Assembly (NCBI GenBank): GCA_963845565.1
Contig: CAWJSJ010000005.1
Coordinates: 192,001 to 256,000, forward strand
Source of the DNA: an uncultured Methylomirabilota bacterium
GTDB lineage: Bacteria; Methylomirabilota; Methylomirabilia; Methylomirabilales; 2-02-FULL-66-22
Length of the DNA stretch: 64,000 nt
Direction: 5' to 3'
Part shown: positions 3,880-10,923 of the stretch, piece after piece
Layout: each line of letters begins with the position of its first letter
Numbering within the stretch: position 1 is the first letter of the stretch
Program-made: the position numbers and the translations under genes
Notes under the pieces: generated by a model
Told to the model about the DNA's origin: nothing
The model's database searches: none
Seen by the model: the letters and a program-made list of their open reading frames with translations, nothing else

Positions 3880-3973
3880 CACTCACCGTCTCGGTCTCTG
3901 TTGGCACGGCCTAATTGTGGATCTCAAGAACATTCGAAGGCATTGGATTGCCACACGCGTCTCAACAGACTAT

Positions 3974-3995
3974 CATATGCAGACACGTGCATGTG
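3974..3995. promoter_or_regulatory. Putative ArsR operator CATATG-N10-CATGTG
   Basis: Palindrome just upstream of arsR; same motif at 4391, 10965 and 11329. Confidence 0.6.
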
Positions 3996-4007
3996 TTGAG
4001 GTCGAGG

Positions 4008-4376
4008 ATGAAGGACATTGCTCGCGTCCTGGATATGTTGGCGGACCCGACACGGCTCCGACTGCTGCGGTTGCTGCGTCAGCAGGAACTGTGCGTCTGC
4101 GAGCTTGTGGATACGCTCCGCATGCCGCAGTACAAGATCTCCCGGCACCTGCGCAGTCTCCGCGCCGTCGGCCTCGTCGAGGCCCGGCGGGACGGCCGGT
4201 GGATGCACTACCGTCTGGGGCGCCGTGGCGTGCAGGCTCGCCTGGTGCAGGATCTGCTCGCAGTGTTGTGCGGCCACCTGGACAAGACACCACTCGGCCA
4301 ACGGGACGACTCCAGTCTGCGGCGTCGGTTGGCCGCGGGAAAGGTCGGGCGGTGTCTGACGCGGAGCCGTCCGTGA
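4008..4376 (+). CDS. arsR: ArsR/SmtB family As(III)-responsive repressor
   Basis: [17 protein letters not shown] metal-binding motif, ISRHLRSLR; lies upstream of acr3. Confidence 0.9.
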
Positions 4377-4453: not shown

Positions 4454-5536
4454 ATGACTGACGGTGTGGTGAAAAAGCTGTCGTTTCTCGATCGGTATCT
4501 CACGGTCTGGATCTTCCTGGCGATGTTCATTGGAGTCGGACAGGGATACTTCTTCCCAACGAGCACGGCGTGGATCTCCGCCTTTCAGGTGGGGACGACC
4601 TCATTCCCCATCGCGATCGGCCTCATCCTGATGATGTATCCGCCGCTCGCCAAGGTGAAGTATGAGGAGATCGGCCGGGTCTTCAAGGACGTCAGGATCC
4701 TTCTCCTTTCCCTGGTGCAGAACTGGGTGATCGGCCCGATCCTGATGTTCATCCTGGCGATCACGTTTCTGCGGGATTACCCCGAGTACATGGTCGGGCT
4801 GATCATGATCGGCCTGGCCCGCTGCATCGCCATGGTCATCGTCTGGAACGAGCTGGCGCGGGGCGACACGGAGTACTGCGCGGCCTTGGTGGCGTTCAAT
4901 TCCATCTTCCAGGTCTTGTTCTTCTCGGTGTTTGCGTATGTGTTCATCACGGTGCTGCCCCGCTGGTTCGGCCTGCAGGGTACGGTGGTGAACATCTCCA
5001 TCGGGCAGATCGCCGAGAGCGTGTTTATTTACCTGGGGATACCGTTCATCGCCGGGGTCATCACGCGCTTCACCCTCATTCCGCTGAAGGGCAAGGAATG
5101 GTATCAGAAGGTATTCATCCCGCGGATTTCCCCCATCACGCTGATCTCGCTGCTGTTCACCATCGTGGTGATGTTCAGCCTGAAGGGGGAGTACATCGTC
5201 CGCTTGCCCCTGGACGTCCTGCGGATCGCGGTGCCGCTCCTGATCTACTTCGTGGTGATGTTCCTGGTGTCGTTCTACCTGAGCTACCGGCTGGGGGCCG
5301 ATTACCCGAAGAGCGCGTCGCTCTCCTTCACGGCGGCCAGCAACAATTTCGAGCTGGCGATCGCCGTGGCCGTGGCGGTCTTCGGCTTGAACTCCGGAGC
5401 GGCCTTCGCCGCGGTGATCGGCCCGCTGGTGGAGGTCCCGGCGCTGATCGGCCTGGTCAACGTGGCGTTCTGGTTCCAGCGGCGGTATTTCGCCGATGCA
5501 CCGGCGGCGAGGCTACAGCGGTGCCCGGGGGAGTGA
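4454..5536 (+). CDS. acr3: ACR3 family arsenite efflux transporter
   Basis: [47 protein letters not shown] before ATG 4454. Confidence 0.95.
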
Positions 5537-5537
5537 C

Positions 5538-5795
5538 ATGGCGGACACGATCATCATATACGGCACCGATACCTGTCCTTACTGCAGCCAGGCGCGAGCG
5601 GCCTATGGGGACAGGGCGGTGTACGTGAACGTTGGCCAACACCCCGAGAAGCTCTCGGAAATGCTGGCTTTGACCGGGGGCAAGAGACATGTGCCAGTGA
5701 TCGTAGAAGGGGGAAAGGTGACGGTTGGCTTCGCAGGAGAGGCCTCTCTGCGCGGTGGCATCCCCCTCTTCGGGGGAACCTGATCCGTCAAATAG
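5538..5795 (+). CDS. Glutaredoxin-like putative selenoprotein (CPYC; C-terminus GGT-U-SVK, UXX-star-like)
   Basis: Grx features (CPYC, VPVI); TGA 5781-5783 is followed by 3 codons and TAG, with a hairpin 11 nt downstream. If UGA is a stop the gene ends at 5783. Confidence 0.75.
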
Positions 5796-5840: not shown

Positions 5841-6152
5841 ATGATTGAAATCACAGAAACCGCACGGACGGCAATCGAGGGGGTCCTCGGGCAGCACAAA
5901 GGGCGGCCCGCGGTGAGAATCCTTTTGCAACCCGGCTGAGGCGGGCCCAAACTGGGTATGGCTCTGGACGAGCCCCAAGAGAACGATGTGACCCACACTG
6001 ATCACGGTGTCACCTTTGCGATCGAGAAGGATCTGTTTGAGCAAATCAAGCCGGTCCGCGTCGATTTCGTGGAGTCGGCAGACGGATCAGGATTCCACCT
6101 CACCTCGAGCCTGGCGCCAGGCGACGGCTGCGGGAGCTCCTGCGCGTGCTAG
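5841..6152 (+). CDS. IscA/HesB-like putative selenoprotein
   Basis: MIEITETA...LQPG-U-GGPKLGMALDEP...GCGSSCAC; in-frame TGA 5937-5939 at the first Cys position of HesB/IscA; hairpin GGCTC-TGGAC-GAGCC at 5960-5974. Confidence 0.85.
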
Positions 6153-6235
6153 TGTCCGGAGAATAGCGGTCGGCCAGGTCGACGGCGGGCGCGTGGCCCC
6201 AGGAGAGGAGTCGAGCGGCAGGAGGGCAGGAGCGC

Positions 6236-6658
6236 ATGGAACCCACGATCAAGGTCTTATTTGTGTGCACCGGAAATTCCGCCCGGAGCCAGATGGCCGA
6301 GGGCTTCGCGAGGCACTTCGGTGGCGAGCAGATCGAGGCGCACAGCGCCGGGGTGGAGCCGAGTCGGCTGAATCCCGTTGCCGTGGCGGTCATGCAGGAG
6401 AAGGGGATCGACATCTCGGGCCACCACTCGAAGGCGTTCGACTGGGACCTGGCTCGACAGATGGACGTGGTGGTGACGGTGTGCGGTCATGCCAACGAGT
6501 CCTGCCCGGTCCTGCCGCCGGAGGTGAAACGCCTCCACTGGCCCCTAGAGGACCCGGCTGCCGCCAAGGGCACGGACACGGAGATCATGGCCACGTTCCG
6601 TCTCGTGCGGGATCAAGTCGAAACCCGGGTCGTGGACTTGCTCCGTACGGTGCGCTAG
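6236..6658 (+). CDS. arsC: Thioredoxin-coupled (LMW-PTP fold) arsenate reductase
   Basis: CTGNSARSQMAE P-loop, TVCGHANESCP resolving cysteines, HWPLEDP. Confidence 0.9.
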   Translation: MEPTIKVLFVCTGNSARSQMAEGFARHFGGEQIEAHSAGVEPSRLNPVAVAVMQEKGIDISGHHSKAFDWDLARQMDVVVTVCGHANESCPVLPPEVKRLHWPLEDPAAAKGTDTEIMATFRLVRDQVETRVVDLLRTVR

Positions 6659-6735
6659 CGCGATCAACTCCCGCGACATCCGTGGGCACGCAATCCGGCG
6701 GACACGCGCGTGACGACTCACAACCGGGGGTGACC

Positions 6736-7026
6736 ATGAAGATCAGTGTCAAGGTCGTCGGACTTTGGAAACTGGTCGAAAAGATGGGGAACAAGGGGTG
6801 CGGAGTGGTGGAGTTTCCCGGGGGAACGGCGAACGATCTCTTTCGACACCTCCTGGCTCACCACGGGTTCGTGTGGGCGGACTTTCCGCTCTTGGAGAAA
6901 TGGGAGGAGAATATCAACCTCTCCATCGTGCATAACGATGACATCTTGTTGAAGGCCGACTATGGCCGAACGCCTCTTGCGGACGGCGACAAGCTGTCGC
7001 TTTACGTTCAGACGGGGTGTTGTTAG
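6736..7026 (+). CDS. MoaD/ThiS-like beta-grasp protein with atypical C-terminus TGCC
   Basis: 96 aa: MKISVKVVG..., GGTANDLF, TPLADGDKLSLYVQTGCC; pattern of MoaD/ThiS but without terminal Gly-Gly. Confidence 0.7.
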   Translation: MKISVKVVGLWKLVEKMGNKGCGVVEFPGGTANDLFRHLLAHHGFVWADFPLLEKWEENINLSIVHNDDILLKADYGRTPLADGDKLSLYVQTGCC

Positions 7027-7118
7027 GCGGGAGCGGCGGCGATGATGGCTGCGGTTCCGCCGTGGTGCCCCGCGTTGGCGGCGGGACCGATGAGTGTACC
7101 CAATTCCGAGATGCCTCC

Positions 7119-8370
7119 ATGACCGTTCAACCTGAATCTGCAGCGCACGACGACGAGGAGGGACGCGGGCTGCTCCATCCGGCGGTAGTGTCTCGCTGCG
7201 ATCTGAGCCGTGGTGACCAACCTCACATGGTTGTTGGGGCGAACGGCGCGCAACAGCGTCAACCAGGGGACCGCCTGGCGAAGGTTTACGTCGAGCCGAC
7301 GAATCGCTGCAATCTGGAGTGTCGCACGTGCATCCGGCACGGGTGGGACGAGCCGCTCGGCCAGATGGATGAGGCGACCTTCGCCCGGATCACGGATGGG
7401 CTCCGCGCGTTTTCGCCGCCGCCCACGGTATTCTTTGGCGGCTTCGGCGAACCGTTGGCGCATCCGCGCATCGTGGAGATGGTGGCGAAGGCGAAAGCCC
7501 TCGGCGGGCCGGCGGAGCTCATCACCAACGGGACGCTTCTCACCCAGGATGTGTCGCGGCGTTTGATTTCGGCGGGGCTCGATCTGCTCTGGGTCTCCCT
7601 GGACGGCGCCACACCGGAAAGTTACACGGACGTGCGCCTCGGCGCGGCCTTGCCACAGGTCCTGGCCAATCTCGCGGCGTTCCGGGATGCGCGCACGGCC
7701 GCTCCGGATCGGACCGCACCCCAGATCGGCATCGCTTTTGTGATGATGAAGCGAAACGTCGCCGATCTGCCGGCGGTGCTGCGCCTTGGGGACCGTTTGG
7801 GGGCGACCCGATTCATGGTCAGCAACGTGCTGCCGTACACGAAGGCGATGTGCGAGGAGGCGCTCTACCCTCGAGTGCTCACGCGTCGCCTGTACTCTTC
7901 CTCCGACCCTCCCCTCAACTTGTCCGCTCTGGACGGGCGACCAGATTACCTTCGAGTCTCGGCGGGACGTGATGCGCGGAGGCCTGCGCATCAGCCTGAA
8001 CGGCGGCGACCTGGCGGAGGCCAGGAACCGCTGCCCGTTTGTCGAGCGCGGCGCCATGGCGATCGCCTGGGATGGGAACGTTAGCCCGTGCCTACCCCTC
8101 CTGCACAGCCATGTCAGTTATCTGGGGGGACAAGACCGCATATCGCGACGGTACGTGGTCGGCCAGGTGGCGGAGCGCGATCTCCGCGACCTGTGGACCG
8201 CGCCGGAGTATGTGGCGTTTCGCCGGCGCGTCCAAGGATTCGAGTTCTCACCCTGCACCGGGTGCGGGGGCTGCAATCTCTCGGAGGCGAATCAAGAGGA
8301 CTGCTACGACAACCCGTTTCCCACCTGTGGCGGGTGCCTTTGGGCGCAAGGCATGATCCACTGCCCTTAG
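7119..8370 (+). CDS. Radical SAM/SPASM protein resembling tungsten-oxidoreductase-associated maturases; apparent +1 frameshift near 7935
   Basis: CNLECRTC motif and GGFGEPL in one frame; Cys-rich SPASM tail (CPF..CLP..CTGCGGC..C..CGGCLWAQGMIHCP) in the +1 frame. Confidence 0.85.
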
Positions 8371-8494
8371 CCGGCTGCTCAAAAAGGCCCACCTGCGGCG
8401 TTGGCGCGCTCGGGCGCTCGTTGCGGCGTACCTCCAGTACGCCTCACTCGGCCCATCACTTGCCGCCTTGCATCTGGACTTTTTGAGCAGCCTG
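8368..8494. repeat. MITE/REP-like element with 14-bp terminal inverted repeats
   Basis: GGCTGCTCAAAAAG (8373-8386) ... CTTTTTGAGCAGCC (8479-8492); relatives at 1385 and 13357. Confidence 0.7.
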
Positions 8495-8567
8495 GGCGGG
8501 AGCCTTGCGAACTGAGCGGCCCCAGGCAAGTTCAATCCATTACACCCCAGATTTCAGGCGGTTGTTC

Positions 8568-9150: not shown

Positions 9151-9438
9151 ATGCTCAAGCCAAAGCAGGACCAGTTGGCAAACGAATTTTACCAGGCCGC
9201 CTTTGCCGATGGTGAGGTGGACGCGAAGACCAAGATCCTGATCGGGACCGCCGTCTCGATGACGCTGGGGTGCTACCCCTGAATGCGGTATTACCTTGGC
9301 GTGGCCAAGGAGCAAGGAATCTCGGAGGGGGCGATTCGGGAGGCGATGGCCGTCGCGATGGCGGTGAACAGCGGACGTGTCCGCATGCAGGCGCGTGAGG
9401 CGCTCAAGGGCTTGCTGGAGCCGCTGGCTTCAGCGTGA
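9151..9438 (+). CDS. AhpD/carboxymuconolactone decarboxylase family putative selenoprotein (CxxU)
   Basis: GGGAGG RBS; DAKTKILIGTAVSMTLGCYP-U-MRYYLGVAKEQGISEGAIREAMAVAMAV; TGA 9280-9282; hairpin CCTTGGC-GTG-GCCAAGG 11 nt downstream. Confidence 0.85.
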
Positions 9439-9453
9439 TGCGAGGAGAATGAC

Positions 9454-10923
9454 ATGAGTGCGAAAGAGTTCAGCCAGGCGGAGATCAAAGACGCGGTGAA
9501 GTCCCGGTATGCGAAAGCCATCCAGGGCCCTTCTTCCTGCTGTGGCCCATCAGCCACCCCGGCGGGGGCCCCGTCGAGCTCCTGCTGTGGACCGATCACG
9601 ATCGAGCAGAAGGGGGGCATGGTCAAGATTGCCGGCTACGATAAAGCCGACTTGAGCCGGCTGCCGGCCGACGCCGTCCAGAACTCCTTCGGGTGCGGAA
9701 CGCCCCTGGCGTTCGCGGGAGTCCAAGAAGGCCAGACGGTCCTCGACATCGGATCGGGCGCAGGCATTGATTGCTTCATCGCCGCGGAAAAAGTGGGGCC
9801 GACCGGCAAAGTGATCGGCCTGGACATGACGCCCGAGATGATCGAGCGCGCCCGCCAGAACGCCAAGGACGCCGGCCTCACCAACGTGGAGTTCCGCTTT
9901 GGCGAGGCGGAGAAGATGCCGGTCGACGATGCCTCCGTGGACTGGGTGATCTCGAACTGCGTGATCAACCTGAGTCCCGACAAGCCGGCGGTCTTCGGCG
10001 AGATCGGAAGGATCCTGCGCCCCGGCGGCCGGATCTCCATCTCCGACATCGTGGCGCAAGACCTCCCGAAGGCGGTCCGGGAGAGTCGCGACGCCTGGAC
10101 CGGATGCCTGGCCGGGGCGATCAGCGAAGAGGCTTATGTCCAGGGGCTTGAGAAGGCTGGATTACGCGACGTGCGCGTCACGTCGCGCATTGTGTATGAC
10201 GCGAGTCAACTCAAGGGCTTGTTTGGCAGCTCCTGCTGCGGGGCGGGAGAAGGGCAAGACGTGGCGGCCCTGGCGGACGCCGCGGCCGGGAAGATCTGGA
10301 GCGCGCGGTTCGAGGGGGTCAAGGCGCAACCGACGTCAGTGGTCGCCGGGACAACCATCGAGCCGGCCACGAAAGGCGACCTTCCCATGCTCGAAGCACT
10401 TCTGGTGGAGGCCGGTCTCCCCACAGATGTTGCCCCGCATCTGGCCGACTTCCTGGTGGCCCGACATCACCGAAAGGTTGTGGGGTGCGGGGGTATGGAG
10501 ATCCAGGGCACAGACGCGCTGTTTCGCTCGCTGGCGGTCAGTTCCGCCTATCGAGGGGTCGGCATCGGCCGACGGCTTTACGAAGCGCTCGTCGAAAAGG
10601 CTCGAGGAAAGGGCATCCACAGAGCGTACCTGCTGACAACCACGGTTGCTTCCTTGGCAGAGTCGTGGGGATTCCAGCGCATTGCGCGGGACCAGGTGCC
10701 TGAGGCGATCCGCGACACCACGCAGTTCCGTGGCGCATGCTGCGCCTCGGCGGTTTCCATGTGGAAGGAACTGGACAGTCAGCCTAGCGAAGTGCTGCTC
10801 TTGCTCCTGAACGTGACCGGGCGGTCCGGTCCGGACCGAAGAACGCAAGGTATCCCAGGTCCTGCGGGTTCGCCAACGGGACTTCGAACGTGCGGTGAGG
10901 AACTGCTGCAAGGGAATGGGTGA
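9454..10923 (+). CDS. arsM: Arsenite methyltransferase fused to a C-terminal GNAT (ArsN2-like) domain; true end probably near 10810
   Basis: SFGCGTP, LDIGSGAGID, ISNCVINL, WTGCLAGA; GNAT motifs RSLAV..YRGVGIG, YLLTTT, FRGACCASAVSM. Confidence 0.9.
   Translation: MSAKEFSQAEIKDAVKSRYAKAIQGPSSCCGPSATPAGAPSSSCCGPITIEQKGGMVKIAGYDKADLSRLPADAVQNSFGCGTPLAFAGVQEGQTVLDIGSGAGIDCFIAAEKVGPTGKVIGLDMTPEMIERARQNAKDAGLTNVEFRFGEAEKMPVDDASVDWVISNCVINLSPDKPAVFGEIGRILRPGGRISISDIVAQDLPKAVRESRDAWTGCLAGAISEEAYVQGLEKAGLRDVRVTSRIVYDASQLKGLFGSSCCGAGEGQDVAALADAAAGKIWSARFEGVKAQPTSVVAGTTIEPATKGDLPMLEALLVEAGLPTDVAPHLADFLVARHHRKVVGCGGMEIQGTDALFRSLAVSSAYRGVGIGRRLYEALVEKARGKGIHRAYLLTTTVASLAESWGFQRIARDQVPEAIRDTTQFRGACCASAVSMWKELDSQPSEVLLLLLNVTGRSGPDRRTQGIPGPAGSPTGLRTCGEELLQGNG

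Follow-up and report, generated by a model that had tools for sequence, protein, structure and literature searches.

A beta-grasp protein ending in Gly-Cys-Cys, encoded beside a radical SAM/SPASM enzyme in ars operons of uncultured anaerobes

The Beta-Grasp Gene

The DNA analysed here, 64,000 nucleotides (nt) of contig CAWJSJ010000005.1 from an uncultured Methylomirabilota bacterium (hereafter the window), carries an arsenic (ars) operon in which a small gene for a MoaD-like beta-grasp protein (6736..7026, plus strand) stands between arsC and a gene for an AbrB-domain radical S-adenosylmethionine (SAM)/SPASM enzyme (7119..8370, plus strand). The small protein ends in Gly-Cys-Cys in place of Gly-Gly. 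A preliminary description of the window had picked out a 96-amino acid open reading frame (ORF) ending in VQTGCC, hidden at the end of a 339-amino acid ORF, after arsC and before a radical SAM/SPASM gene; the ORF is confirmed, as is, by profile matches, its place between these two genes. It starts at the ATG at 6736, stops at the TAG at 7024-7026, and forms the in-frame end of the stop-to-stop ORF 6007-7026, the front of which overlaps arsC in another frame. The 96-amino acid ORF is a real gene under purifying selection, the ratio of nonsynonymous to synonymous substitution rates (dN/dS) against the window gene being 0.15-0.35 in 20 pairs of homologues, with three further pairs saturated.

The protein matches 0 Pfam or NCBIfam families at E <= 0.01, and so has no ThiS/MoaD profile match (PF02597, TIGR01687). 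A word-indexed search of 5.8 billion proteins gave 26 homologues, nearly all of 96 amino acids; none carries its own Pfam domain. An HMMER profile search of 1.84 billion representatives gave nine matches, which comprise only the protein's own family and two spurious repeat proteins that were discarded; no relative ending in Gly-Gly was among them. The segment WADFPLLxxWEEN is specific to this family, which we call the Cys-Cys family. Two apparent longer forms were also set aside: P0041, the sole match for longer or fused forms, is an error-ridden read-through from arsC and no fusion, and P0026, in which a carboxymuconolactone decarboxylase (CMD)-like front is joined to the Cys-Cys protein, appears to be miscalled or chimeric.

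The preliminary description had called the protein MoaD/ThiS-like, and structure prediction agrees. The AlphaFold2 model has a mean predicted local distance difference test (pLDDT) score of 91.7, falling to 63 in the last block of residues. The 23 best Foldseek matches in the PDB are all MoaD, SAMP1, CysO, ThiS or Urm1, with template modelling (TM) scores of 0.42-0.70, and the nearest ESM Atlas clusters are of the ThiS family (0.91). As modelled, the protein is a sulfur-carrier-type beta-grasp protein with a flexible tail that has lost its Gly-Gly end. The family is small and consists of cytosolic MoaD-type beta-grasp proteins.

The Gly-Cys-Cys Tail

The tail is encoded by GGG TGT TGT TAG (7015..7026, plus strand), that is, Gly94-Cys95-Cys96-stop. 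Every complete homologue ends in the same way and none in Gly-Gly. In a first alignment (A1), 25 of 27 rows end in Gly-Cys-Cys, the other two being one out-of-frame tail and one truncation; among ORFs of the family in fetched DNA, from metagenomes and one congener, 24 of 26 do so, and the remaining two are cut by contig ends. G94, C95, and C96 are invariant in a further alignment of 26 rows (A4), in which no other Cys is conserved. Gly-Cys-Cys-stop is written in nine synonymous codon combinations among 24 genes. Judged from these alignments, the conservation of the tail exceeds chance. In a joint alignment (A3), Gly-Cys-Cys lines up with the Gly-Gly-Gly of MoaD proteins linked to the tungsten oxidoreductase AOR and with the Gly-TGA-TGA of a sister family, both of which we discuss below.

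The absence of a Gly-Gly end makes adenylation and thiocarboxylation by a MoeB/ThiF-type enzyme unlikely. No MoeB/ThiF gene was seen among the annotated genes of the operon, where no search was aimed at E1-like enzymes.

Distribution of the Cys-Cys Gene

The Cys-Cys gene was found in 28 places: the window, 26 metagenome contigs, and one congener. These places are contigs and not independent lineages, and several carry identical genes. Seven have less than 250 bp of downstream sequence and were left out of the linkage count, leaving 21. The enzyme gene lies directly downstream in 13 of these, the window included; in two (L040 and L041, probably one place) it lies on both sides; in one a CMD-like gene intervenes; and in four the contig ends inside the CMD-like gene. 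The last place, L039, is taken up where the function is weighed. Between the Cys-Cys gene and the enzyme gene, which share a strand, there are 60-140 nt. Of the 27 fetched loci, 19 contain an ars gene, and the eight that do not are contigs of at most 3.2 kb. Nearly all members of the Cys-Cys family are ars-linked, and the family is at home in the ars operons of uncultured wetland and sediment anaerobes.

Two local arrangements are worth recording. In L040 (1216-2823) and L041 (3-2136), a single Cys-Cys gene is bracketed by two AbrB-radical SAM/SPASM paralogues that share about 60% identity, and the loci continue with Grx-like, arsR, and ACR3 genes. The CMD-like gene between the Cys-Cys gene and the enzyme gene is free of Cys and belongs to one sublineage (L022, L024, L025, L027, L028).

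The family is rare and patchy in its distribution. A pattern scan of 185,579 species genomes found no Cys-Cys protein, and none was found in 40 other genomes of the window organism's order. Genome searches yielded it from two genomes alone, that of the window and 1 of 20 congeners, which makes 2 of 251 genomes of the phylum. In a plasmid collection the Cys-Cys protein was absent, and the enzyme was represented only by a 31%-identical protein of Thermovirga.

A Sister Family With Gly-TGA-TGA Ends

An ars-linked ThiS-like sister protein is encoded in five genomes of another phylum (L047, L055, L129-L131). In the first two loci, L055 and L047, the ORFs stop at Pro/Leu-Gly followed by TGA TGA TGA; the L055 protein matches PF02597 at 26.9 bits, above the cut-off, and both have weak moaD_arch matches. 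Three more loci came from a search of 401 genomes of that phylum. All five genes have Gly-TGA-TGA, the next codon being TAA in two and TGA in three. The Gly-TGA-TGA-TAA of two genomes would fix the tail as Gly-Sec-Sec-stop, where Sec is selenocysteine, and in alignment A3 the two putative Sec positions align with the two Cys after the conserved Gly. A hairpin, GCAGCC-loop-GGCUGC, lies a few bases downstream in 5/5 loci, with one double compensatory change (L131); at n = 5 this covariation is thin. The selB gene scores above the cut-off in three of the five genomes, is split into two frames in a fourth, and was not found in the fifth, a draft. Four database homologues of the sister protein end at the same Gly. 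The sister family is likely, from its TGA codons and the hairpin, to end in Gly-Sec-Sec. Term searches of the main text of a 2026 selenoproteome catalogue (PMC13188914) found no MoaD-like entry. All five genes lie in ars loci, with the enzyme gene abutting in three and 2 kb away in one.

Another ThiS-like group (L135, L137, L139, L145) ends in MGVG or RGAS followed by TGA-GGY-TGA/TAG in 5/5 ORFs. It may have a Sec-Gly end, and it has no ars genes within 1.5 kb.

The Radical SAM/SPASM Enzyme

The enzyme contains the CxxxCxxC motif of the radical SAM cluster as CNLECRTC (7308..7331, plus strand; PF04055, 54 bits), the three Cys of which (C64, C68, C71) are invariant in 68 enzyme sequences. A SPASM domain and a C-terminal CGGCLWAQG..CP motif follow (8032..8367, plus strand; PF13186, 50.4 bits); eight of the nine conserved Cys in the C-terminal part are invariant in the same 68 sequences, and C415 is nearly so. 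The N-terminal SpoVT/AbrB-like domain (7119..7280, plus strand; PF04014) is degenerate in the window's lineage: among five intact relatives, PF04014 scores above the cut-off in one, weakly in three, and not at all in L018. A motif, VDxxGRLVLP..GLxPGA, runs across 91 rows of the enzyme family. The preliminary description had likened the enzyme to maturases linked to tungsten oxidoreductases, and TIGR04317 is indeed its best-scoring model; intact relatives, however, score 269-306 bits against a cut-off of 380, and 33/33 fall below it. By these scores the enzyme is a relative of the TIGR04317 family and not a member.

The model of the enzyme (pLDDT 78.3) has generic SPASM/twitch neighbours in the PDB at TM scores of about 0.5, which do not indicate a substrate. 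The best PDB match by sequence is BtrN (59 bits), and PDB searches found no close solved structure. The structural neighbours nevertheless bear on one explanation of the pair, in which the enzyme modifies the tail, by a thioether, decarboxylation, or cross-link, and the modified tail is the functional group. SPASM enzymes acting on Cys of peptides and proteins are well known (anSME, sactisynthases, CrpC; PMC13692751), the neighbours include SkfB, CteB, SuiB, anSME, and PqqE, and the two genes are close together on one strand. The neighbours equally include small-molecule enzymes (DesII, BlsE, BtrN, MoaA). Pfam gives only Radical_SAM, SPASM, and PF04014, with no RRE/PqqD-like domain, and the AbrB-like domain stands where one would be expected. 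The same enzyme family also pairs with the Cys-less Gly-Gly tail of MoaD, with no partner-specific residues. On balance we regard a role of the small protein as substrate as rather unlikely.

The Break in the Enzyme Gene

The radical SAM gene, presented as a single gene in the preliminary description, is in fact split over two frames, which was missed there. As assembled, its ORFs are 7119-8084 and 7786-8370, and the coding sequence runs from 7119 to 7932 and then in the frame of 7786-8370. TIGR04317 matches in different frames, at positions 3-200 (168.5 bits) and 232-349 (115.4 bits). The frameshift lies at a GGG run with one extra G (7933..7935, plus strand). Two metagenome contigs that are 94-96% identical to the window, L018 and L019, have GG there and encode one intact 416-amino acid enzyme. 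Four public runs were compared; the contigs of two (X2, X3) cover the site and are also one base short, X2 differing at three other letters in 494, and those of X1 and X7 do not reach it. The ratio of nonsynonymous to synonymous polymorphism (pN/pS) between the window and L018 is 0.13 for the whole enzyme gene and, with the frame corrected, 0.15 beyond the break.

Other genes of the assembly are also split, selB into four pieces (G000:C4:5502-7391) and one AOR gene into two (G000:C2:247029-247626), and it seems that the assembly carries indel errors, or several pseudogenes. Because relatives have GG, pN/pS is low past the break, and other genes are split, we attribute the break either to an indel in the assembly, which is probable, or to a very recent change private to this strain. 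If the gene were truly broken by a recent frameshift, the pair would be decaying in this strain. The extra G in the assembly, the degenerate N-terminal domain, and a long branch (L018 0.36, against 0.09-0.17 for its sisters) fit such decay, and the four near-identical sequences free of the extra base, the low pN/pS past the break, and the other split genes speak against it; we consider it very unlikely.

Arsenic and Tungsten Settings of the Enzyme Family

The enzyme family extends far beyond the Cys-Cys gene. At least 571 relatives turned up when species-representative genomes were scanned, and gene contexts within 6 kb were counted for the best 79 loci of these (80 enzyme rows). Full-length identity of their enzymes is 52-76%, and the source genomes are metagenome-assembled ones labelled Acidobacteriota, Anaerolineae/Chloroflexota, Syntrophobacterales, and others. 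Core ars genes accompany 22 of the 80 rows, accessory ars-type genes only 9, AOR 17, both 1, and neither 31; AOR is present in 18 of the 79 loci. Proteins frequently encoded nearby on the ars side are ArsR, DGC, OsmC, and PF04060 proteins and, in 21 loci, an ArsE-type thioredoxin whose gene often adjoins that of the enzyme. On the AOR side, as seen in Anaerolineae, the order is the enzyme, then a ThiS/MoaD protein, a DUF1952 protein, and AOR. This enzyme family has 16 neighbouring ThiS/MoaD ORFs that end in FPPV[AG]GG, of which 15 belong to AOR loci.

Because the same enzyme family pairs with MoaD-Gly-Gly beside AOR, the Cys-Cys protein looks like a MoaD partner that has been given a new tail. 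The preliminary description had suggested a repurposed carrier. That suggestion gains from the MoaD proteins ending in FPPVGGG that partner the same enzyme family and from the likely Sec-Sec sister. The enzymes themselves barely differ between arsenic and AOR settings.

The preliminary description had also stated that no tungsten oxidoreductase is encoded in the window, and none of the AOR_N matches of the genome falls inside it. The genome as a whole has 10 AOR_N matches (about nine AOR genes), and the gene in the ars operon is its sole TIGR04317-like gene. These observations allow a further explanation, in which the enzyme matures the tungsten pyranopterin cofactor, as it would beside AOR, but under arsenic control, arsenite being expected to attack dithiolene cofactors and AOR enzymes; in this view the Cys-Cys protein would replace MoaD in a form adapted to arsenic, for example as a persulfide donor or decoy. 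Tungsten AOR is inhibited by arsenite. The explanation draws on the near-identity of the enzymes across contexts and on the many AOR genes in a genome with only one enzyme gene of this type. What the AOR-MoaD-radical SAM trio does has so far only been presumed (PMC11323500). An enzyme serving about nine AORs would, however, not be expected behind an ArsR-controlled promoter, and most ars-linked loci have no AOR within 6 kb. We think that such cofactor maintenance is improbable as the function of the pair.

The ars Operon of the Window

The string of genes, all on the plus strand, begins with arsR (3915..4376; NF033788, 93.7 bits) and an ACR3 arsenite efflux gene (4454..5536; TIGR00832, 464 bits). 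These are followed by genes for a Grx-like UXX-star protein (5538..5783) and a HesB-like protein with an in-frame TGA (5841..6152), and by arsC of the thioredoxin-coupled type (6236..6658; PF01451; TIGR02691, 168.6 bits, just below the cut-off of 174.3), which lies directly upstream of the beta-grasp gene. After the radical SAM gene come marR, an AhpD-like gene with C-Y-P-TGA, a gene for an ArsM-ArsN2 fusion in the next transcription unit (9454..10923, plus strand; NF008823, 303 bits; NF040501, 130.9 bits), a second arsR, an ArsP-type permease, and an ArsE-type thioredoxin. The fusion protein has two SCCG motifs near its N-terminus and an acetyltransferase of the ArsN2 type. Between 3700 and 9500, promoter-like sites were found only at arsR (3948-3976) and just before marR, a weak indication that the genes from arsR to the radical SAM gene form one transcription unit.

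Three genes of the cluster likely encode selenoproteins. The Grx-like protein (5538-5795), of UXX-star family 1, scores 92 bits against a cut-off of 72, and its ORF ends in TGA, followed by SVK-TAG. The HesB-like gene (5841-6152) has its TGA at 5937-5939 and, read through, scores 94.2 bits on NF038090 (cut-off 85). The AhpD-like gene (9151-9438) has the TGA of its C-Y-P-TGA at 9280-9282. The beta-grasp tail of the window is Cys-Cys and not Sec, despite these likely selenoprotein neighbours.

This setting is one ground for considering the tail as a redox arm, which would cycle between a dithiol and an eight-membered disulfide (or diselenide) and shuttle reducing equivalents, for example to ArsC or the enzyme, without carrying arsenic. 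The C-terminal Gly-Cys-Sec-Gly arm of thioredoxin reductase is the model for such a role, and replacement of Cys by Sec is characteristic of redox sites. The gene directly follows a thioredoxin-type arsC in the window and many other loci, the operon is rich in small Cys or Sec proteins of redox type (Grx-like, HesB-like, AhpD-like, ArsE-type thioredoxin), and some loci lack the enzyme. The 96-amino acid protein, however, has neither a redox fold nor a CxxC motif, and its beta-grasp body and pairing with an enzyme family that is partnered by MoaD point to docking on the enzyme. Vicinal disulfides are also strained and diselenides very stable, which makes a common role awkward. A redox arm is in our view unlikely.

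A palindromic element of 130 nt (8368-8500; RNA fold -63.8 kcal/mol) begins at the radical SAM stop codon. The genome contains at least 40 copies of it with 84-93% identity, and contigs of other runs part from the window exactly at 8366-8368.

Proposed Function

We tentatively favor, at somewhat less than even chances, a model in which the Cys-Cys protein is a dithiol carrier of trivalent arsenic (a diselenol carrier in the sister family) that serves the enzyme or other ars proteins. The protein would descend from a MoaD partner and would still dock on the same radical SAM enzyme. Lacking Gly-Gly, it would be unlikely to be activated to a sulfur carrier of the thiocarboxylate kind. The two thiolates at its end, or the selenolates of the Gly-Sec-Sec sister, would instead bind trivalent arsenic. 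A tail with no more than two ligands would best suit methylarsenite or an As(OH) unit; a two-Cys site is likewise enough for methylarsenite in SpArsR (PMC11868830, citing Chen 2017). The tail may bring the arsenic to the active site or auxiliary clusters of the enzyme, or to ArsM, ArsP, or ACR3. Such delivery would have a parallel in the handling of mercury by HgcB and MerA, which also have Cys-Cys tails; that of HgcB (Cys94/Cys95) has been proposed to ferry mercury (PMC7305189), and a comparable role has been proposed for the CC/CU tails treated in the Haft preprint.

Several observations weigh against the carrier model. In a quick maximum-likelihood tree of 90 enzyme rows, the AOR, ars, and Cys-Cys/Sec-Sec contexts are intermixed, and enzymes linked to Cys-Cys proteins occur in at least three places. 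Only two alignment positions differ consistently between AOR-linked and Cys-Cys/Sec-Sec-linked enzymes, and both are mixed in other ars-linked members. Because the enzymes mix in the tree and differ at just two positions, their chemistry is probably common to the tungsten and arsenic settings and not specific to arsenic. Most of the 31 ars-linked enzyme rows show no beta-grasp gene nearby. The Cys-Cys/Sec-Sec protein and the enzyme do not strictly need each other, since the Cys-Cys locus L039, with ACR3 upstream, has no enzyme within 4.4 kb, and the Sec-Sec locus L158 has none within 16 kb. The enzyme gene of the window is frame-broken in this assembly. Inorganic As(III) usually takes three sulfur ligands, of which the Cys-Cys tail offers two, and selenocysteine is more typical of redox than of binding sites.

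The carrier model can be extended to the chemistry of the enzyme. The Cys-Cys/Sec-Sec protein and the enzyme may together form an O2-independent system that transforms arsenicals, in which the tail holds As(III) or methylarsenite in the active site of the enzyme for the making or breaking of a C-As bond by radical chemistry, for example as an anaerobic C-As lyase; the tungsten-linked relatives would act on a chalcogen-bound metal centre. ArsI, which cleaves such bonds, requires O2, and we know of no anaerobic C-As lyase. We put this extension forward as a speculation that is quite unlikely to hold as stated.

Novelty and Significance

In the literature searched, nothing was found on the pair of Cys-Cys protein and radical SAM enzyme, although the supplements of the Haft preprint (10.1101/2022.07.06.499078) could list such families. 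A literature search for radical SAM enzymes with arsM, arsP, and acr3 brought up ArsL alone. The MoaD-radical SAM pair itself is known; what is new is the series of tails on that pair and the widespread ars linkage of the enzyme, both of which are unreported.

The ars operons are well catalogued, and yet two recurrent members, the ubiquitin-fold protein with its Cys-Cys end and the radical SAM/SPASM enzyme, are unnamed. For the enzyme, at least 31 ars-linked loci are counted, in genomes of Acidobacteriota, Chloroflexota, and the Desulfobacterota type. The series of Gly-Gly, Cys-Cys, and Sec-Sec ends on one scaffold with one enzyme family is a natural experiment, and could reveal the role of the 'Cmo' enzyme in tungsten enzymes. 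If true, a beta-grasp protein with a C-terminal Sec-Sec would be a new selenoprotein family, and anaerobic handling of methylarsenite by the pair would bear on arsenic cycling in wetlands and paddy soils.

Comparison With Known Systems

The 96-amino acid protein shares with the MoaD, ThiS, SAMP, and Urm1 carriers the beta-grasp fold and a flexible C-terminal tail, but differs from them in having no Gly-Gly end and no profile match, and in its WADFPLLxxWEEN segment. It also resembles ArsD, a small protein of ars operons whose vicinal Cys bind As(III); ArsD, however, has a thioredoxin fold and serves ArsA, whereas the protein described here is a predicted beta-grasp protein with no ArsD profile match, and no arsA was seen among the annotated genes. 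ArsS and ArsL are likewise encoded by radical SAM genes in ars clusters near arsM (for ArsL, PMC8552651). The enzyme of the window is of a different family, the ArsS and ArsL models not being among its matches.

The closest known arrangement is the AOR-MoaD-radical SAM ('Cmo') trio, as in tk1066-tk1065-tk1064 of T. kodakarensis (TIGR04317), where a beta-grasp gene likewise lies beside a radical SAM/SPASM gene. The trio is known yet unsolved (PMC11323500, PMC1779556). The same AbrB-domain subfamily includes AOR-linked members with MoaD-Gly-Gly and DUF1952. The window differs from the trio in that the genes lie in an ars operon with no AOR, the enzyme falls below the TIGR04317 cut-off, and the partner ends in Cys-Cys. 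In its tail, the protein is reminiscent of HgcB, MerA, SaoC, and DUF466/KCU-star, whose flexible tails end in two adjacent Cys and which have Sec variants among their relatives and a place in heavy-metal or metalloid gene clusters (PMC7305189; Haft preprint); the CC/CU C-termini of SaoC and DUF466 are described in the Haft preprint (10.1101/2022.07.06.499078). The likeness is not one of homology, as the folds are different, and in the present family the proposed ligand is arsenic and the selenium variant is likely Sec-Sec rather than Cys-Sec.

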